DNA from: a virus
Reading direction: 5' to 3' (one strand)
Virus record (IMG/VR): IMGVR_UViG_3300034047_000005
Location: 1 to 6,176 of that record
Length of the DNA stretch: 6,176 nt
Made by a program: the position numbers and the translations under genes. Below, one piece after another: positions 1-6,176 of the stretch. Within the stretch, counting starts at the first letter, position 1. Each line of letters opens with the position of its first letter. The notes below the pieces were generated by a model. It was not told the DNA's origin. It worked only from the letters and a program-made list of their open reading frames with translations, and made no database searches.

Positions 1-94
1 AAAGCGTCGAGCGCGCAGGACGCAGCACCACGCGACGCCCGCACCGCCCCGTGAAGGTCACCAGCAGCAACGCAGGAAGCACGCTCACGCAGGA
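1..94. repeat. Terminal redundancy (wrap-around of a circular molecule), copy 1
   Basis: Identical base for base to 6083-6176, checked by direct comparison. Confidence 0.95.
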
Positions 95-233
95 ACCGCT
101 CACAGGTGCGCGCTTCCAGCAGAACGATATTCTCGCGGGCTTGAGCCTCACGAGCTCGCGCCCGGACGAACGACGAGACAGACAACCCGAGCGAGCCGAG
201 CGCGACGCAGAGAACCAGAGATGCCAGAACCAT
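1..233 (-). CDS. 5' part of a junction-spanning 88-aa ORF: hypothetical small membrane protein upstream of and coupled to rep
   Basis: ATG at 233-231 is preceded by AAGGGG with a 6-nt spacer. My hand translation is MVLASLVLCVALGSLGLSVSSFVRARAREAQARENIVLLEARTCERFLRERASCVAAGDLHGAVRASRGAASCALDAFRVAASRRSAA. It runs off the window start and continues at 6082 down to a TGA at 6051-6049. The N-terminus is hydrophobic. Only about 8 percent of codons end in A, as in the other phage genes. It is absent from the ORF track because the window splits it. Confidence 0.45.
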   Translation of the reverse strand, partial: MVLASLVLCVALGSLGLSVSSFVRARAREAQARENIVLLEARTCERFLRERASCVAAGDLHGAVRASRGAASCALDA

Positions 234-249
234 GGAAAACCCCTTTTTC

Positions 250-267
250 GTCAATTCACCTTGAACA
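250..267. promoter_or_regulatory. Candidate operator, motif copy 1: GTCAA-ttcacc-TTGAACA
   Basis: It shares 12 fixed positions with 305-322. The core is the inverted repeat TCAA-N6-TTGA. Confidence 0.3.
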
Positions 268-280
268 GCGAATATCGCGC

Positions 281-309
281 ATACTGCACACCGAAACACC
301 CACTGTCAA
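281..309 (-). promoter_or_regulatory. Putative sigma70-type promoter for the ORF88-rep operon
   Basis: On the minus strand, TTGACA (309-304) is followed by a 17-nt spacer and CAGTAT (286-281). This would give a leader of about 40 nt to the ATG at 233. The -10 matches consensus at only 3 of 6 positions. Confidence 0.35.
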
Positions 310-322
310 GAGGTTTTGAACA
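305..322. promoter_or_regulatory. Candidate operator, motif copy 2: GTCAA-gaggtt-TTGAACA
   Basis: Same motif 55 bp from copy 1. It overlaps the minus-strand -35 (TTGAC is the reverse complement of GTCAA) and the SD and start codon of the HTH gene. Confidence 0.3.
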
Positions 323-624
323 TGACCGCCGCCATCGAACTACTTGACAAATACAAGCAGGTGTGCGGGATAGATACGGACATGGCCGCAGCCGACCGTC
401 TTGGGCTTGTGCGCGCAACCATCAGCATGTGGCGACACGGAAAAACGCACCCGAGCGCGCACACCGTCCGGGCTATGTGCGAGGCGTGCGGAGAGGTAAC
501 GATCGAATGGCTGCCGAGGATCGAGGCGGCCCGAACATCGAACCCGGAAAGCAAGGCCGCATGGTTGAGCGTGACGAAGGACGCAATCCGCGCACGCATC
601 GCACCAACGCGAAGGCATGGCTAA
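322..624 (+). CDS. Cro/CI-type helix-turn-helix transcriptional regulator, putative phage immunity or lysogeny repressor (100 aa)
   Basis: The segment AAADRLGLVRATISMWRHGKTHPS fits the classic HTH pattern (LG-hydrophobic-x-x-x-T-I/V-S-x-W-x-x-G-K-x-x-P). It is the only gene on the plus strand and is divergent from rep. AAGAGG at 308-313 lies 8 nt before the ATG at 322. The ORF track starts it at a TTG at 316, which I consider less likely. Stop is TAA at 622-624. Confidence 0.8.
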   Translation: MTAAIELLDKYKQVCGIDTDMAAADRLGLVRATISMWRHGKTHPSAHTVRAMCEACGEVTIEWLPRIEAARTSNPESKAAWLSVTKDAIRARIAPTRRHG

Positions 625-946
625 ACCTACGGTTTAACCACACACCTAAAGCGCCCTGCAAGACGCTCAACTTACTCCAAAGGTTTTGTGCAAAGGCTAC
701 GCCTTTACACCCGAGCATCGAGAAAGCGCGCCCATAGTCTGCCGGTCTATACCGGGACAGCACGCGGCCAGACACAGCGACCTTAAAAGCGGGTTTGGCA
801 GGGAGGTATGTGCCTAAAGAATTACCTGCTCGGAACTTGGCCAACAGGACACCGCTACGCATGAACTCCGATCGGTGGCCAAATACAAGATACCGTCCGG
901 GACTACCGGAGAGGCGAAACTACAAGGGCCGCCGACAGCGGCACAA

Positions 947-979
947 TGTCCGCTAGTTGGCCTGGCACAAAAGCGGACA
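947..979 (-). terminator. Possible weak terminator or structured element just after the zot stop
   Basis: An 8-bp perfect stem (tgtccgct at 947-954 pairing with agcggaca at 972-979) encloses a 17-nt loop. In the minus sense it is followed by TTGTGCC. The U-tract is poor and the loop is large. Confidence 0.25.
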
Positions 980-980
980 C
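959..980. repeat. Partial third copy of the 82-bp repeat: ggcctgg-N5-aagcggacac
   Basis: 18 of 22 positions match 3901-3922 with the same internal spacing. It abuts the zot stop codon (982-984). Confidence 0.4.
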
Positions 981-981
981 G

Positions 982-2067
982 CTACCGACTCTCAGCGAAG
1001 GAATCCGGAGAACCGAAACCAGCCGACGCCGGAGGGACGTACACCGAACGCCCCACACCACGCGCCGCACCGGGAACACCGGCAAGAGGCCGAGGAACGA
1101 ACGGCGCCGGTTCCGACGAGGTTTGCACAGGTGGAGGCGGCACCTGCTGCACAGGTTGACGCGTAGGGTTGTACACACCATCCCGAGCGATAGCGCGGCA
1201 CATCTTCACTTCAACGATGTACTTCGTCCCCTGTTCCGTGATGCAGGAACACCCGCCGTCCTCGACAGCTATGCAGTAAATTTCAGGGTTGGAAGCGATG
1301 GAACGACCATCGAAGGCGGGAGCCGTCCACGGCTGACCGGCAAGACGAGGACGCACCCACGAGGCGATATCTTCAGGCCGCTTGAGTTGTGGCTGATCCG
1401 CAAATCCCGAACGCTGCGCGCTCGCGCTTTGCGCGGTAGGCGCCGGAGTTGGAGGTTGGAAAAACGACATGACCCGGTTGTACATGAGCGCAATGGCAAT
1501 CAACAACACCGGGATCGCAAAATAAAACCAAGGGATCTTGCGCTGTGTTGTGTCCTCCACGGTCGATTCATAGAGGTTGCGTTCCATGATCTTTTGCGGG
1601 AATGACCACAGCTTCTTTGTGTCGGAGCTGCCGACATTAGGCGAGAACTTATCCCACCACAGGATGACCGACTTTTTAAGCCCGAACTTGCGGCGCACAT
1701 GCTCATGACGCTCGACAAGCCCGAGCAGAAAGCCGTCAATCTGCTTTTGAGCCTGCTGCGCAATCAGGATGAAATCAAAGCCCCGGTGACGATGCGTAGC
1801 CATCGCCTGCACATGCGGCGGAACCTTGGACGCACCCGAGCGCTGCGGAAAAACGGTATAACACTCGTCGAGCACAATCACCGAGCGATCAGGTAAATCT
1901 TCCCACTTCGTCGGGTCGTCAAGCTCACGAAACCCCGCTTTGTTGAAGTCCAGACCACGGATGCCGTGTGCATAGACTTCGCGCCCCTTTTCCACGAACT
2001 CAACAGCCAGCTGCACAGCGCGCAGTGTCTTACCGTGTCCGGGCTGCCCCGTGATTAGGTAAATCAT
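982..2067 (-). CDS. zot: Zot-like / pI-type phage assembly ATPase (361 aa)
   Basis: The N-terminus MIYLITGQPGHGKT carries a Walker A motif, and VIVLDEC is a Walker B motif. A single TM segment (IPWFYFAIPVLLIAIALMY) follows at about residues 178-196. The C-terminal part has 4 Cys and a Pro-rich tail. It is the last gene of the structural operon, and its start overlaps the upstream stop as ATGA. Confidence 0.93.
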   Translation of the reverse strand: MIYLITGQPGHGKTLRAVQLAVEFVEKGREVYAHGIRGLDFNKAGFRELDDPTKWEDLPDRSVIVLDECYTVFPQRSGASKVPPHVQAMATHRHRGFDFILIAQQAQKQIDGFLLGLVERHEHVRRKFGLKKSVILWWDKFSPNVGSSDTKKLWSFPQKIMERNLYESTVEDTTQRKIPWFYFAIPVLLIAIALMYNRVMSFFQPPTPAPTAQSASAQRSGFADQPQLKRPEDIASWVRPRLAGQPWTAPAFDGRSIASNPEIYCIAVEDGGCSCITEQGTKYIVEVKMCRAIARDGVYNPTRQPVQQVPPPPVQTSSEPAPFVPRPLAGVPGAARGVGRSVYVPPASAGFGSPDSFAESR

Positions 2068-2351
2068 CGCTGCACCGCCCGGAAAATCATTTTCCCGGTG
2101 CGAGCAGCGACCATCGCGGACAGAATCATGGTCACGACGACGTCACCACCAATCGCGCCGAACGCTTGATAAAGATCGGAACCCATCGCGCCAGCGTACT
2201 GCTTGACATAGGACAGCAGAGCCGGAAGGGCAAACGCGGTTGTTGTCGCCGTGATCCCGAGCGTAATGAGGATTTTGAGAACCCATTGCCCGGCATAGGT
2301 GGCAACAAGCCACGTCAGGCCGCGCAGCAACAGCGCAATAATCGCTGGCAT
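2064..2351 (-). CDS. pVI-like small integral membrane protein, putative minor coat or assembly protein (95 aa)
   Basis: It has several hydrophobic segments and sits between the pIII-like gene and zot, as in many inoviruses. Its start overlaps the pIII-like stop as TAATG, and its stop overlaps the zot start as ATGA. Confidence 0.65.
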   Translation of the reverse strand: MPAIIALLLRGLTWLVATYAGQWVLKILITLGITATTTAFALPALLSYVKQYAGAMGSDLYQAFGAIGGDVVVTMILSAMVAARTGKMIFRAVQR

Positions 2352-3769
2352 TATTCAGAACTCCCGGCAAGAATTTTCAACGAAACGAACGCACCAAAAA
2401 CCAACATGATCGAGTGAATGAGCGCAAGCCAGCGGCAGAAAAAATCCTGATATTGCGACATATCGAACATCGTCCCGTTGGCCTCTCGGAAGATGAAAGG
2501 ACACGACGAACCGACCCACCCGGACGAATCCAAACCGGTAGCGTCAACCGTCTTTTCCTTGAACACCGAGCCAAGGGAAGACTCCTCCACGCCGTAGCCG
2601 TCACCATCACCTGGCTTAACTTGCGTCCAATCAGGCTGGCCGTTCCCGTCAGCGTCAACAATCGACGCACCACAGCGCAGAAGCCACGTCTGGGTGACCA
2701 CGCCGCACGTAGGCGCATCACCCGAGCAGACCGGAGGACTATTGCAATTGCCGCCGCCCGCCATGCTCCCTTTGCCCTTGTCTTTGTCGCCGCCGTCAGG
2801 ATCGCCGCCCGGAGTGCCGCCCGTAGAGCCCGAAGGCGCAGGGTTAGGCCCAGCGTCACCGTGTCCCTGACCGCTTGAGGTTGGCCCATTGCCAGACGAA
2901 TAGACGTTAACCACGGTGGTTCCGGTTGACGTAGAAGGCTCACCCGACGCGCCGCCGGTAGTTGTGCCGGTGGTGTACCTGTCAGAAGTATTTATTTCGG
3001 AAACGGGGTCACTGATCGGAGTAGCCGGAGGCGGAGCAGGAAGCGGAGGCGGAGCGCCCGCGCAGATGGTGGAGCCGTCACCGTTCACGCAGCCGCCCGT
3101 GGGCGTGTCACCCGCGCCAGTGCCAGCACCACGCGCAGCGTCCCCAGAAATGCAGGTCTTAGCACCGCCCGCCGCATAGCAATACGTGTCAGTGCCGGGG
3201 TCGTAGCAAGTACCCTCACCGCAGACCGCCGGAGGCGCGGAAGGCTCGCCGTCACCGTCACCCGTACCACCACCCAGCTCAGGCAGGCCCGGAGGACAGG
3301 CGCCGCCCGTGGGGAACCACTCACCCTCACCCAGACGATCAGTGCCGTTGGAATTCGTCTCACCGCCGCCGAGGTAGTACTTACAACCCTCATTGCAAAC
3401 AACCGCCGTCCCGCTCTGACCTTTCAGCAGCGCCCAGCCCACAATCGGAGGCGCGCTCGAACTGCAAACGAGAGGCGGAATCACGAAATTTATAAGATGG
3501 TCATGGGTCGAAGACCCGTCTTTCATATCCCCATAGCCCTTCGCGACGATCTGATTCCCACCACCATCGACACCGCCGCCGCCCTCACAGCTTGGGTTTT
3601 CCCACTTCGTGATAAACATACCGATCCAGCGAGAAGTCTGGCCGCAGAGCGCCAAAGCCTCCTCACGCGTCGGTGCGCTTTCCGTGTCCACAGCCCGCGC
3701 CGGCGACACAGCAAACACAGCCGCCAGCGCGAGCAGGAACCCAACAACGCGAGCCCTCACGAGAAGCAC
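2351..3769 (-). CDS. pIII-like adsorption / minor coat protein (about 469-472 aa)
   Basis: There is a signal peptide (RARVVGFLLALAAVFAVSPARA, then VD), 18 Cys by my count, long Gly/Pro/Thr/Ser linkers and a C-terminal hydrophobic anchor (WLALIHSIMLVFGAFVSLKIL). It is the largest structural gene and lies downstream of the major coat gene. The start is uncertain: GTG at 3769 or GTG at 3760. Neither has a clear SD. Confidence 0.8.
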   Translation of the reverse strand: MLLVRARVVGFLLALAAVFAVSPARAVDTESAPTREEALALCGQTSRWIGMFITKWENPSCEGGGGVDGGGNQIVAKGYGDMKDGSSTHDHLINFVIPPLVCSSSAPPIVGWALLKGQSGTAVVCNEGCKYYLGGGETNSNGTDRLGEGEWFPTGGACPPGLPELGGGTGDGDGEPSAPPAVCGEGTCYDPGTDTYCYAAGGAKTCISGDAARGAGTGAGDTPTGGCVNGDGSTICAGAPPPLPAPPPATPISDPVSEINTSDRYTTGTTTGGASGEPSTSTGTTVVNVYSSGNGPTSSGQGHGDAGPNPAPSGSTGGTPGGDPDGGDKDKGKGSMAGGGNCNSPPVCSGDAPTCGVVTQTWLLRCGASIVDADGNGQPDWTQVKPGDGDGYGVEESSLGSVFKEKTVDATGLDSSGWVGSSCPFIFREANGTMFDMSQYQDFFCRWLALIHSIMLVFGAFVSLKILAGSSE

Positions 3770-3816
3770 AGCCAGAGCGCCGGCAGAATACCCATCATCA
3801 CAAAATAGCCTTCCAT
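3757..3816 (-). CDS. Tentative 19-aa upstream ORF (MEGYFVMMGILPALWLCFS) coupled to the pIII-like gene
   Basis: The ATG at 3816 is preceded by GGAGAG with a 4-nt spacer (GGAG 6 nt upstream). The TGA at 3759-3757 overlaps the GTG at 3760-3758 as GTGA. It is too short to assign a function and could be chance. Confidence 0.2.
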   Translation of the reverse strand: MEGYFVMMGILPALWLCFS

Positions 3817-3841
3817 ACAGCTCTCCACGTCAACAACGAAA

Positions 3842-3923
3842 GTCAACAGCGCAGGAAAGGGCAAGCCCTCTCCTGCACCTCTCATCATCCAAAACGAAAC
3901 GGCCTGGACAACAAGCGGACACA
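3842..3923. repeat. 82-bp intergenic direct repeat, copy 1 (between the coat terminator and the pIII-like gene)
   Basis: 78 of 82 positions are identical to 4523-4604 with no indels. The mismatches are at 3849, 3885, 3887 and 3901. It contains the hairpin at 3851-3876. Confidence 0.95.
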
Positions 3924-3925
3924 GA

Positions 3926-3956
3926 AAGCCCGGAGGCGCCGACCGCCTCCGGGCTT
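3926..3956 (-). terminator. Rho-independent terminator downstream of the major coat gene
   Basis: A perfect 13-bp GC-rich stem (aagcccggaggcg with cgcctccgggctt) encloses a 5-nt loop. It begins 7 nt after the coat stop. In the minus sense it is followed by TTTCTGTGT. The position is analogous to the strong terminator after gene VIII in Ff phages. Confidence 0.7.
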
Positions 3957-3962
3957 GTAGGG

Positions 3963-4172
3963 TCAGCCCTTGGCGCTGCGCTTCACCATCGAGATCAGCA
4001 ACACCACACCGACCAGACCCAGCACGATCCCGCCGACGATCAGAATCTCGCCCTTGCCATCAGCAAGTTCGGTCGTGATCGCAGCGGACAAGTCACCAGC
4101 AGCCGCGAAGGCACTGGACGAAACCACAGCGGCAGTAGCAGCAGCCGCCAGAACACCGATACGCTTGAACAT
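3963..4172 (-). CDS. Major coat protein precursor, pVIII-like (69 aa, predicted 46-aa mature form)
   Basis: The sequence is MFKRIGVLAAAATAAVVSSSAFA, then AAGDLSAAITTELADGKGEILIVGGIVLGLVGVVLLISMVKRSAKG. It shows a signal peptide ending in an AxA site, an acidic N-terminus, a hydrophobic core and a basic C-terminus. The SD GGGAG lies 7 nt upstream, and a strong terminator follows. Confidence 0.88.
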   Translation of the reverse strand: MFKRIGVLAAAATAAVVSSSAFAAAGDLSAAITTELADGKGEILIVGGIVLGLVGVVLLISMVKRSAKG

Positions 4173-4204
4173 TTTGAAACTCCCAGAAATGACCGGAGGT
4201 AGAA

Positions 4205-4414
4205 TTACCCCCGCGCCGTGTGCCGCAAAGTCCGGATTACAAAGCCAATGGCCCAGACCGCCCCGATAGCGCCGGAGATGGCCAAGCCCTCAGCCGCAGA
4301 GAGAACCGGAAAGCCCCCCACAGTGTTCGGAACCCACTGAATCACCGAGCAGTGACCTGTCGTTAGGTCTAAATCCACAGAGGAACAGACGGCCTTAAAT
4401 TCAGCGGTTTCCAT
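4205..4414 (-). CDS. Small membrane protein with a coat-like C-terminus, putative minor coat protein (69 aa from the ATG at 4414)
   Basis: The sequence is METAEFKAVCSSVDLDLTTGHCSVIQWVPNTVGGFPVLSAAEGLAISGAIGAVWAIGFVIRTLRHTARG. It has a C-terminal TM segment and a basic tail. AAGGTGA lies just upstream of the ATG at 4414. The ORF-track start at 4456 is a TTG with no SD. It sits between the gV-like and gVIII-like genes, where Ff carries gVII and gIX. Confidence 0.55.
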   Translation of the reverse strand: METAEFKAVCSSVDLDLTTGHCSVIQWVPNTVGGFPVLSAAEGLAISGAIGAVWAIGFVIRTLRHTARG

Positions 4415-4522
4415 CACATCACCTTGTCTTGTCGCAGCACCCAAGCGCACGCGCAAAAGCTCCTATCGTCGCGTTTACACGTGCACTTGGGCGCCGCTCT
4501 AACCCTTGTCGCCGTCAGCACA

Positions 4523-4604
4523 CCCGCCGACGGTCAACATCGCAGGAAAGGGCAAGCCCTCTCCTGCACCTCTCACCTTCCAAAACGAAACAGCCTGGAC
4601 AACA
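4523..4604. repeat. 82-bp intergenic direct repeat, copy 2 (between the gV-like gene and the 69-aa membrane protein gene)
   Basis: 78 of 82 positions are identical to 3842-3923, offset 681 bp. It contains the hairpin at 4532-4557. Confidence 0.95.
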
Positions 4605-4655
4605 AGCGGACACAACCGAGCAGGAAGAACAACCAGCCCAGCAGACCGCCCCGCC

Positions 4656-4931
4656 TCACTTGCCCGCAGGCGCAGCCGGAGCGACAGGCTGCAACGTCAG
4701 GCGGCGCGAGAGCATGAGCTCGCCGTACTGGCCGAGCGCGAAGCTGTCCGGATGGATGTCATAAGCCCCCACCGGATAGACGGCCCCAGTGCCAAGGCCG
4801 ACTTTGAACGGGAGTTCATAGCCGCCGCCGAGCACGAGAGCCGCACGCTGCTCCCGCATGATTTGAGGACGACCGTCTTTTCCGTTGAACTGCTTTTCAT
4901 GGACTTGGTTGTCCTTCACGTTGATATGCAT
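4656..4931 (-). CDS. Gene-V-type ssDNA-binding (helix-destabilising) protein (91 aa)
   Basis: The C-terminal block YDIHPDSFALGQYGELMLSRRLTLQP resembles the Ff gVp block YTVHLSSFKVGQFGSLMIDRLRLVP as I remember it. Size and position immediately after rep fit. The SD GAGGG lies 7 nt upstream. Its start lies 16 nt inside the end of rep. Confidence 0.88.
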   Translation of the reverse strand: MHINVKDNQVHEKQFNGKDGRPQIMREQRAALVLGGGYELPFKVGLGTGAVYPVGAYDIHPDSFALGQYGELMLSRRLTLQPVAPAAPAGK

Positions 4932-6052
4932 AGTTGAGCCCTCACGAGGCTTTCAAGTTGATTTGCTGCGCCGGTATTTTTGAAGCGCGAGGGCAGCGAG
5001 TCCCGCGCAACGTTCGCCCGCAAGAAAGCAGGCGCATCTTCACCAAGAGCGCGGTACAGCAGGCCGAGGGTTGGCCCGCACTGTTCACGCAACCACTTAA
5101 CCGCAGCAGTCGCGGTCGCTTCTACCTTCGCTTTCACAACGTGCAAGGTTTCGAGCAGATCATCGAGACTGATAGACGCCGTGAGCTCCGCGAGCAGCGC
5201 ATGGGCGCCGCGCAGGTAGCGCAAAGGCGCCGTGAGAATGTCGTATGGAAGACCACCACGAACGCTTGCCGAGCCGTCCTCGCAATCCCGAAAATGCTTG
5301 CCGTAAAAACGCTGTTCCGCACGCACCCATGGCGAGGTTTGATCCTTGAGCTGCTTTCCCTTTTCGTAAACGCAGAGCTCCTTGTGACCCTTCTTTCCCA
5401 CGTAGAGCGTGCAGCCGGTAGCGTTCCCGTGGTCGTCAAGGAATCGAGACTTCGGAGGACGGCCAGCCCCGGCGAAATGTCCGCTCTGCGCCCTGGCAGC
5501 GAGCTCGCGCACATCGAACAACTGACCGGAGAAGTCATCGAGCGCCACATCGACGCGAGACACGCGAGCCTGCACAATTTCAAGCTGCAACCGGACGTGC
5601 GCCCAATCCTTCACCCAGCGACAGCCCGCGCCGGTCAGGTCAAACATGAGAGAACCGCGGTTGCCGCCGAAGCACACATGACCGCAGAGCGCCCCCTCGC
5701 GGTCGAGCATGACGCAAGAGTTTTCATAGAAATTCAACGAGCGCCCGGAAGGCCGCAGCACGCGGATACCGCAGTCGCCCAAGAGAAACTGCGCCAAATA
5801 GTCGAGGTTTGTTGCTGCGCACTCCTCAAGCCTTTCGAGCGAAATCGACACCGTCAGCCAGTCGATGCCGCAGGCGAAACCGTCTGCCGTAGACTTTTGG
5901 CCCCTGTTAGTTTCCGGGCCGAAGGCACCAGCCGGAGCGCTTTTCACCGGGTGAGCCGGTGTAAAGCCAGAAATCAACGACTTACGAGCATCAGACGCAG
6001 CAGCAGAGGCGCAGCGCAGCGCGTGACGCATATCGAGCGAGTCAAGGCTCAT
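4916..6052 (-). CDS. Rolling-circle replication initiation protein, Rep_trans family (378 aa)
   Basis: The block CTLYVGKKGHKELCVYEKGKQ matches the Rep_trans signature (Y-I/V-G, a basic stretch, then hydrophobic-Y-D/E-K). The N-terminal IDWLTVS block is typical of the family. It is the first large gene of the operon and is followed by the SSB gene. Confidence 0.9.
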   Translation of the reverse strand: MSLDSLDMRHALRCASAAASDARKSLISGFTPAHPVKSAPAGAFGPETNRGQKSTADGFACGIDWLTVSISLERLEECAATNLDYLAQFLLGDCGIRVLRPSGRSLNFYENSCVMLDREGALCGHVCFGGNRGSLMFDLTGAGCRWVKDWAHVRLQLEIVQARVSRVDVALDDFSGQLFDVRELAARAQSGHFAGAGRPPKSRFLDDHGNATGCTLYVGKKGHKELCVYEKGKQLKDQTSPWVRAEQRFYGKHFRDCEDGSASVRGGLPYDILTAPLRYLRGAHALLAELTASISLDDLLETLHVVKAKVEATATAAVKWLREQCGPTLGLLYRALGEDAPAFLRANVARDSLPSRFKNTGAANQLESLVRAQLCIST

Positions 6053-6176
6053 GCTGCTGACCTACGAGAAGCAGCAACGCGGAAAGCGTCGAGCGCGCAG
6101 GACGCAGCACCACGCGACGCCCGCACCGCCCCGTGAAGGTCACCAGCAGCAACGCAGGAAGCACGCTCACGCAGGA
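6049..6176 (-). CDS. 3' part of the same junction-spanning 88-aa ORF; 6083-6176 duplicates 1-94
   Basis: Same reading frame as 1-233 once position 1 is equated with 6083. The stop TGA (6051-6049) overlaps the rep ATG (6052-6050) as ATGA. Confidence 0.45.
   Translation of the reverse strand, partial: LRERASCVAAGDLHGAVRASRGAASCALDAFRVAASRRSAA
6083..6176. repeat. Terminal redundancy (wrap-around of a circular molecule), copy 2
   Basis: Identical to 1-94. Offset is 6082 bp. Confidence 0.95.

Follow-up and report, generated by a model that had tools for sequence, protein, structure and literature searches.

The stretch of viral DNA analysed here, referred to as the window, comprises 6,176 nt (positions 1–6,176) of the IMG/VR record IMGVR_UViG_3300034047_000005 and carries two near-identical direct repeats of 87 nt, located on either side of the genes for a small protein of 69 amino acids (aa) and for the major coat protein. 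The first 94 nt of the window (1–94) are exactly repeated as its last 94 nt (6083–6176), and the original Joint Genome Institute (JGI) contig (sample 3300034046, Ga0373985_00291) shows a 94-nt terminal overlap of its own at another rotation. Since the ends are identical and the overlap of the original contig is rotated differently, the genome is that of a circular inovirus with a length of 6,082 nt. All phage genes except one are located on the minus strand. In gene-sense order the repeats and their surroundings contain the following genes, open reading frames (ORFs) and structures:

4656–4931, minus strand: gV-like single-stranded DNA (ssDNA)-binding protein (Pfam PF02303, 1.3e-15; PHROG annotation single-strand DNA-binding protein)
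4573–4659, minus strand: hydrophobic micro-ORF of 28 aa (VRRGGLLGWLFFLLGCVRLLSRLFRFGR), GTG start overlapping the gV TGA, homologues in relatives
4528–4614, minus strand: repeat copy 2 from the repeat search, comprising the 3' 42 nt of the 28-aa ORF, hairpin B and the GATGTTGACC box
4541–4568, minus strand: hairpin B of copy 2, a 12-bp stem with a U·G pair and a CUUG loop with G-C closing
4532–4541, minus strand: 3' box GATGTTGACC of copy 2, GAT(C/G)TTGAC(C/G) in relatives
4434–4497, minus strand: long imperfect hairpin from fold prediction, located past copy 2 and just upstream of the 69-aa gene, counterparts in L004 and L005
4205–4414, minus strand: 69-aa small structural-module gene between the repeats, conserved in relatives, match to phrog_4644
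3963–4172, minus strand: major coat protein (Pfam PF05356) between the repeats
3926–3956, minus strand: intrinsic terminator hairpin of the coat gene (repeat and fold analysis)
3837–3923, minus strand: repeat copy 1 from the repeat search, apparently a derived ectopic duplicate
3848–3879, minus strand: hairpin B of copy 1, same core as in copy 2, stem of 14 bp
3841–3850, minus strand: box GCTGTTGACT of copy 1, the counterpart of GATGTTGACC
3757–3816, minus strand: 19-aa ORF (MEGYFVMMGILPALWLCFS), conserved, stop overlapping the pIII GTG start
2351–3760, minus strand: pIII-like adsorption protein, the first large gene downstream of copy 1, conserved in relatives

The repeat search returned a direct repeat of 87 nt at 3837–3923 and 4528–4614 with 93% identity; a recount gave 81 identical positions out of 87. 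A first-pass annotation of the sequence had described near-identical 82-bp direct repeats at 3842–3923 and 4523–4604. The repeat is real and direct and the count of 78 matches in 82 positions is correct, but the second interval is misplaced by 10 nt: compared as written the two segments match at only 28/82 positions, while 78/82 are reached when the second is shifted by +10 to 4533–4614. The spacing, given there as 681 bp, measures 691 nt from start to start. The longest exact run common to both copies is 35 nt, whereas shuffled sequences gave runs of no more than 15 nt (n = 50), and the repeat thus far exceeds chance. A contig from a sister sample (L002), which was assembled independently, contains copy 2 with all its private variants and breaks 6 nt past copy 2. 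Because copy 2 and its private variants recur in this independent assembly, the repeat is not an artefact of a single contig. The positions of the copies had been described correctly, with copy 2 between gV and the 69-aa gene and copy 1 between the coat terminator and pIII. Both had been called intergenic, which does not hold for the first 42 gene-sense nt of copy 2, since these are coding and form the 3' end of the 28-aa ORF. A peptide shared by two plus-strand ORFs had been explained as a by-product of the repeat, and we agree with this explanation, as the genes lie on the minus strand.

Relatives of the phage were collected by two routes, those of the structural lineage via the Zot protein and the 69-aa ORF, and those of the Rep lineage via Rep. 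In four independent phages of the Rep lineage (L017, L020, L021 and L102) gV is followed by a module consisting of a micro-ORF, a GC-rich hairpin and a box. The micro-ORF encodes 27–28 aa of hydrophobic character and starts on the gV stop with an ATGA or TAATG overlap; examples from the relatives are MRPRWIAYAFLLLAVVRFGCWLFRIRL, MRRSHWLGVAFLLLAVVRLLCSMFRTRF, MRRPHWIALAFLLLAVVRLVMYAFRIRF and MRRFGWLGVAFLAVAVARLALSYFRYRH. The GC hairpin has a conserved base, (G)GUGCAGG...CCUGCG, above which stem and loop vary while the stem always pairs, and is followed by the box GAT(C/G)TTGAC(C/G). Copy 2 shows the same arrangement: the last 42 nt of the 28-aa ORF (4573–4614), hairpin B beginning 4 nt past its stop, and then the box. 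The 28-aa ORF of the window, which is missed by the gene finder, aligned with its homologues in the relatives and had no family match in PHROGs. Since the same module occupies the same place in L017, L020, L021 and L102, copy 2 is the ancestral module in its native place, part of it being coding sequence. A covariance model built on the hairpin found one copy each in these four phages and two in the window; the remaining 87 loci, among them about 80 more distant Rep_trans inoviruses, gave none. The search covered 92 sources and returned no members beyond the training set. The conserved 28-aa ORF, the covarying hairpin and the box together constitute an undescribed module at the boundary between replication and virion genes, which occurs in an uncultured inovirus lineage with relatives in Dyella/Rhodanobacteraceae-type hosts. 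Tandem 8-nt repeats (GCTGTTCC, 3–6 units) are found between the hairpin box and the next gene in L020 (1694–1773) and L017 (2740–2775), and their number varies between phages.

We also determined the predicted folding of the repeats. In gene-sense RNA hairpin B is formed by GGUGCAGGAGAGGGC-UU-GCCCUUUCCUGCG with the CUUG loop closed by G-C. Minimum free energies of the whole copies as sense-strand RNA are -38.3 kcal/mol for copy 1 and -33.5 kcal/mol for copy 2, in comparison to about -22.5 kcal/mol for the opposite strand; the structure is specific for the sense strand because G·U pairs turn into A·C mismatches on the other strand. RNAalifold analysis of six hairpins (the two copies of the window and those of L017, L020, L021 and L102) yielded 12 pairs, none of which is broken in any sequence. 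In 5/12 pairs both sides have changed, including a switch from C-G to A-U in the lower stem of L017, which is conserved otherwise, so the substitutions are compensatory as expected for a conserved structured cis element, either an RNA or an ssDNA hairpin. Pairs of the G·U (G·T) type make up 12 of the 72 cells in the alignment and the U·G at the stem base is invariant, while the loops read CUUG, GCGC, UCGC, GGGU and AUCA in the five genomes. Neither copy matched a family in Rfam 15, even at E<=10. A match to mir-5897 at 4426–4505 reflects only the long hairpin and is spurious. This long imperfect hairpin (4434–4497; about 24 bp, z = -5.5) has counterparts at the same place and with partly common sequence in L004 (about 2335–2390) and L005 (about 438–488), and could possibly be a packaging or priming signal. 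A further 5' hairpin predicted in copy 1, hairpin A, was dropped as a part of the element: it is kept neither in the relatives nor in copy 2, in which the corresponding sequence is coding.

Copy 1 is a derived duplicate of the 3' 87 nt of the module and comprises ORF tail, hairpin and box. It starts 2 nt past the point where pairing in the coat terminator stem (3926–3956) stops and ends 20 nt upstream of the 19-aa ORF, the end of its hairpin lying 31 nt upstream of that ORF. The terminator tail, CUUUCUGU, has 5 U within the 8 nt following the stem GGG, compared with 6–7 U in the relatives; only TC separates the last paired T's of the terminator from copy 1, which thus interrupts the T-rich tail. 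In the copied fragment of the ORF there is no start codon, one Leu has become Pro and the stop comes earlier. The copies differ at six gene-sense positions (23, 37, 39, 75, 83 and 84); at position 75, an A-to-C substitution (3849) gives copy 1 its longer stem of 14 bp. None of the six falls within the 35-nt core around the hairpin (P ~0.04 if the differences were placed randomly), which may indicate selection on the core. In nine relatives with a readable coat-pIII spacer there is no module between the terminator and the small ORF. In the structural-lineage relatives (5/5) the coat terminator is followed by the 19-aa ORF within about 15–25 nt, whereas the window has about 90 extra nt at this place, and this extra stretch holds copy 1. 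Since the spacers of the nine relatives are empty of the module, copy 1 represents a lineage-specific insertion. A comparable repeat is missing from all five structural-lineage genomes (L004, L005, L006, L008 and L009).

With one of its two copies at an ancestral locus common to the relatives, the repeat has the form of a segmental (dispersed) duplication, and we consider it very probable, judging from these comparisons, that it originated as a private duplication of the resident module. Copy 1 would have arisen by illegitimate recombination of the microhomology type or by template switching near hairpins in the rolling-circle genome. Hints of microhomology are the sequence TGTGTC at the left edge of the repeat, which is also present in the terminator tail of L005, and a second TGTTGAC just right of copy 1. 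The idea of a device that brackets the capsid genes, put forward in the first-pass annotation, does not agree with the occurrence of the module only once, after gV, in four relatives and the empty coat-pIII spacer in nine. The same annotation had named relatives without the repeat, together with transcript ends and abundance that do not respond to deletion of one copy, as a sign of a neutral recent duplication; the relatives examined do lack the pair, and what this indicates is a lineage-specific duplication. The repeat is therefore an ordinary local duplication and not a new capsid-module mechanism, and the duplicated cis element, although not described before, belongs to a familiar type.

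The 19-aa ORF downstream of copy 1 is kept in all relatives of the structural lineage with the consensus MEGY(L/F)VMLG(L/V)LPA(I/L)WLALS, its stop overlapping the pIII start (L004 2932–2991; L005 about 1035–1094; L006 7246–7305; L008 4362–4421; L009 4052–4111). A version of 23–29 aa (xGYFVxxxxxGxxWILFS...) is present in the Rep lineage (L017 3253–3342; L020 2242–2313; L021 4374–4457; L102 6058–6147). It possibly encodes a small protein of the membrane or the virion that has escaped annotation. The 43-aa ORF called by JGI at 3757–3888 is the 19-aa ORF stretched upstream into copy 1, where two substitutions created its ATGATG, and is regarded as an annotation artefact.

Outside the locus described so far the window contains the following features:

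4916–6052, minus strand: Rep (Pfam PF02486, Rep_trans)
2064–2351, minus strand: pVI-like protein (PF10734)
982–2067, minus strand: Zot/pI (PF05707)
959–980, minus strand: 22-nt motif just past the Zot stop, resembling the first 22 nt of the repeat, counterparts in L003 and L008
322–624, plus strand: helix-turn-helix repressor (PF01381)

The two groups of relatives resemble different parts of this gene order. From the 69-aa ORF to Zot the structural-lineage genomes share 55–68% aa identity with the window; among these loci the window Rep matches only that of L004 (38%) and the window gV has no match. In the Rep lineage (L017/L018/L019, L020, L021 and L102) the identity is 67–75% for Rep and 59–67% for gV but only 31–34% for Zot, and at the DNA level about 73% over 4651–6052. 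The window is a mosaic, in which Rep and gV, together with the 28-aa ORF and the hairpin, come from one inovirus lineage and the stretch from the 69-aa ORF to Zot from another. The large intergenic region (625–981) groups with the structural lineage and shares blocks only with it. One mosaic junction (4500–4530) is located within about 30 nt downstream of copy 2, so that the repeat marks a junction between two inovirus lineages. The 22-nt motif past the Zot stop, GTGTCCGCTT(G/T)T..CC.GGC, has 18/22 positions without gaps and 21/23 with gaps in common with the first 22 nt of the repeat, and counterparts are found in the intergenic regions of L003 (2490–2511, 20/22 versus the repeat) and L008 (7449–7464); the likeness may equally be fortuitous, mark a shared site or be the scar of an old recombination event.

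No match to GenBank phages was obtained with megablast for the whole genome or with distant blastn for 3700–4700, and a search of IMG/VR for Zot relatives found none. The nearest named phages are inoviruses of Stenotrophomonas, Xanthomonas and Ralstonia with a Zot identity of only 31–41%, and the named cellular relatives of Rep and Zot belong to Dyella, Luteibacter and other Xanthomonadales-type genera; the host is presumably of the Xanthomonadales type. The gene-sense strand contains 24% T versus 16% A, and a T-rich strand is expected to be the packaged strand in inoviruses.

Since the virion genes have no promoter of their own, transcription must pass hairpin B. We suggest that the hairpin would act on the gene-sense strand and that the polycistronic mRNA is its most likely setting. 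A role as RNA is favoured because the structure is formed by the sense strand, contains frequent G·U pairs and is placed between cistrons just past a translated micro-ORF. As an intercistronic stem-loop, hairpin B would block 3' exonucleases and/or cause partial termination, and would in this way determine how much upstream message is present relative to downstream message where the replication genes meet the virion genes. A ribosome terminating on the micro-ORF could possibly modulate the hairpin. Copy 1 would place another such structure, a barrier or an attenuator, downstream of the coat terminator, the T-tract of which it shortened, and would lower or buffer read-through into the 19-aa ORF and pIII-pVI-Zot; it may equally well be neutral and merely tolerated. 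The same hairpin in a second context, where it interrupts the T-tract of the coat terminator, thus offers a natural experiment on read-through into pIII. A cis-RNA element had been among the roles listed in the first-pass annotation, and the sense-strand hairpin maintained by compensatory changes in the relatives bears this out in general terms only. The RNA-level mechanism, an intercistronic barrier or attenuator, is put forward tentatively and falls somewhat short of an even chance. For the favoured reading as a whole, a duplicated resident module with an RNA-level role, we see the chances as about balanced.

Several observations weigh against this reading. Hairpin B has the GC-rich stem-loop of an intrinsic terminator, but no U-tract follows directly 3' of its stem: copy 2 continues with GAUGUUGACCGUCGG and the relatives with GAUCUUGACC, compared with 5–8 U in the coat terminators of the same genomes. 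A canonical Rho-independent terminator is ruled out by the missing U-tract, and a lax terminator scan passes copy 1 only. Conservation of the stem base and of the 3' box hints at recognition by a specific partner, something that a plain barrier to exonucleases could do without. Folded as ssDNA on the packaged-sense strand the hairpin has a predicted stability of about -10 kcal/mol, so a role at the DNA level in packaging or complementary-strand priming is possible. The module is absent from L104 and L022, with Rep identities of 71% and 62%, and is dispensable in some relatives. The covariation is drawn from only five independent genomes, the intact core (P ~0.04) argues only weakly for selection on copy 1, and every functional step is one that we infer from sequence.

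One alternative is an ssDNA signal on the packaged strand, which would serve either packaging, with the co-inherited 28-aa membrane peptide reading it, or priming of the complementary strand; the window would have two such signals. The structure is specific for the packaged-sense strand, is stable as DNA and travels together with a small hydrophobic ORF; sequence conservation of the stem base and flank recalls the Xanthomonas packaging hairpins, in which the stem sequence is essential (bioRxiv 10.1101/2023.12.30.573655). Those signals are 20–26-nt hairpins with the stem consensus GGX(A/-)CCG(C/T)G (bioRxiv 10.1101/2023.12.30.573655). This consensus occurs on neither strand of the whole genome and no encoded WAGF motif of the PSB15 type is present, and these two absences speak against the known Xanthomonas packaging signal. 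The hairpin moreover follows Rep-gV, whereas the assembly genes stem from a lineage that has no hairpin B and carries its own long hairpin at that place. Packaging is disfavoured, since its signal would be expected to evolve together with the assembly genes, and the proportion of G·T pairs (12/72 cells) suits RNA better than DNA. We therefore judge an ssDNA signal to be unlikely. A role as translational operators for the gV-like protein ahead of two blocks of virion genes, which the first-pass annotation had proposed, appears still less probable. The module is inherited together with gV and both copies are positioned upstream of start codons, copy 1 by 31 nt; M13 gene V protein, moreover, reportedly represses translation of several phage mRNAs including that of gene III. 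The Ff operator, however, is reportedly unstructured and overlaps the initiation region, while the conserved part here is a stable hairpin at a distance of 20–80 nt from the ribosome-binding site, and an 80-nt hairpin intervenes between copy 2 and the next gene.

Copy 1 could also be without function, left over from recent illegitimate recombination, neutral or at a slight cost and not yet lost, so that only copy 2 matters. This is a serious alternative, although in our view it is on the whole more doubtful than probable. Its site is empty in all relatives, its ORF fragment has already decayed, and filamentous phages tolerate extra DNA. The particle length of these phages scales with the genome length, as in M13 cloning vectors, and the argument of the first-pass annotation that a 6-kb phage under size constraint would keep the repeat only for a function is correspondingly weak. 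On the other hand the core has remained intact against six changes in the flanks, one change lengthens the stem, and some cost is to be expected since an 87-nt direct repeat invites a lethal deletion of 691 nt.

Three readings in which the two copies act as a pair are very improbable. If they were recognition or nick sites of Rep, rolling-circle replication could release a 691-nt circle with the capsid genes or a deleted genome of 5,391 nt. The co-inheritance of module and Rep across the mosaic boundary would fit this idea, as would the intergenic region of the window, which shares blocks only with the structural lineage. RstA of CTXphi nicks the apical loop of an origin hairpin (PMC4439123), whereas the loops of hairpin B differ in every genome. 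A better candidate is found in the N-terminal coding region of Rep (5892–5922, minus strand), where the sequence GGCCC(A/G)GA(A/T)ACTAACAGGGGCCAAAAGT hardly varies among five genomes, while elsewhere about 50% of positions are identical in all five. This 30-nt block (GGCCC-GGAAACTAACAG-GGGCC-AAAAGT) is able to form a GGCCC/GGGCC hairpin with a 12-nt loop, is co-inherited with its cognate Rep equally well as the module, and is a candidate plus-strand origin or nick site; its place in Rep recalls pT181, the origin of which lies inside repC. Hairpin B as origin, an idea raised by its CTTG loop, which is a nick motif of other Rep families, and by the co-inheritance with Rep, was down-weighted in view of the variable loops and this better candidate. 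Two active direct origins would furthermore be unstable, yet the copies persisted to 7% divergence. Both the candidate origin in Rep and the ORF of 19–29 aa before pIII are useful for annotating small inovirus genomes.

Equally little speaks for bookends through which homologous recombination could exchange or excise the capsid module, which the first-pass annotation had also considered. The junction at which the Rep-gV lineage gives way to the structural lineage is no more than about 30 nt away from copy 2 and a similar 22-nt motif follows the Zot stop, but the relatives offer no support: none has flanking repeats, and the enclosed genes have diverged from them to the same degree as pVI and Zot, which does not indicate separate exchange. 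Recombination between the copies would also delete essential genes. No better are the prospects of a scheme in which both copies are active sites for a phage protein (Rep, gV or the 28-aa peptide) and the 691-nt coat segment is a separable unit. If true, this unit with the 69-aa and coat genes would be released or amplified as a subgenomic circle or have an mRNA fate of its own, boosting the supply of coat protein, a capsid-gene dosage device undescribed for inoviruses.

Least credible of all is a small mobile element inserted twice, such as a miniature inverted-repeat transposable element, a repetitive extragenic palindromic (REP) element or a derivative of the insertion sequences IS200/IS605, or a duplicated promoter. 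Compared with the structural-lineage relatives alone both copies resemble insertions, copy 1 has two predicted hairpins, and a TTGAC hexamer is present. A mobile element seemed plausible on these relatives alone, but the Rep-lineage relatives show copy 2 to be native sequence that includes coding DNA. Terminal inverted repeats, a target-site duplication and a shared target sequence are absent at either copy, the 5' flanks being TTTC and CGGT and the 3' flanks unrelated. No true further copies were found in viral, genome or metagenome contigs by exact-pattern scans, which miss diverged copies: the hairpin core had 0 matches in viral contigs and 2 in 596 Gb of species-representative genomes with nothing similar beyond 20–23 nt, and the left-end 20-mer had 0 matches in viral contigs when degenerate positions were allowed and 5 in JGI metagenome contigs (a collection without the source sample) with neither phage proteins nor flank similarity. 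For a promoter, neither copy gave a sigma-70 match or has a -10 element at usable distance. In L102 the next ATG follows the TTGAC box after only 23 nt, which leaves no room, and the spacing downstream of the box varies via the 8-nt tandem repeats; on these findings a promoter was rejected.

In comparison to known systems, the module shares with the Xanthomonas packaging hairpins the short GC hairpin on the viral strand, the sequence-specific stem and a host group of the Xanthomonadales type, but its stem is 12–14 bp long instead of 7–8 and its loop 4–6 nt instead of 6–10 (bioRxiv 10.1101/2023.12.30.573655). As with the plus-strand origins of the Rep_trans/RstA type (pT181; CTXphi, PMC4439123), a hairpin cis site is inherited with a Rep_trans gene; unlike there, the nick loop is not conserved and a better candidate origin is present within Rep. 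Lambdoid phages have paired cis RNA elements, nutL/nutR and in HK022 putL/putR, and the window likewise holds two near-identical structured elements upstream of different gene blocks in a small phage genome. In contrast to these, the element is single-copy in the relatives and without an Rfam match, and copy 1 follows, instead of preceding, the terminator that it would have to override. In Ff phages (f1/M13) the gene VIII terminator and a cascade of processed mRNAs set the levels of gV and gVIII versus gIII. Position and logic are similar here, with a structured element at the gVIII-gIII boundary that would govern read-through into low-copy virion genes. The window, however, already has a canonical terminator, to which copy 1 adds a hairpin that interrupts the T-tract, and the resident copy follows gV, a place at which Ff phages carry no comparable element. 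In E. coli, intercistronic stem-loops such as the REP hairpins between malE and malF cause differential mRNA stability within an operon. The element described here differs from them in not being a multi-copy host repeat, in the sequence conservation of its stem base and 3' box, in the position of the hairpin 4–30 nt past the stop of a coupled micro-ORF, and in a function that we infer; like them, it is a GC-rich hairpin without a U-tract, formed on the sense strand only and placed between the cistrons of one unit.

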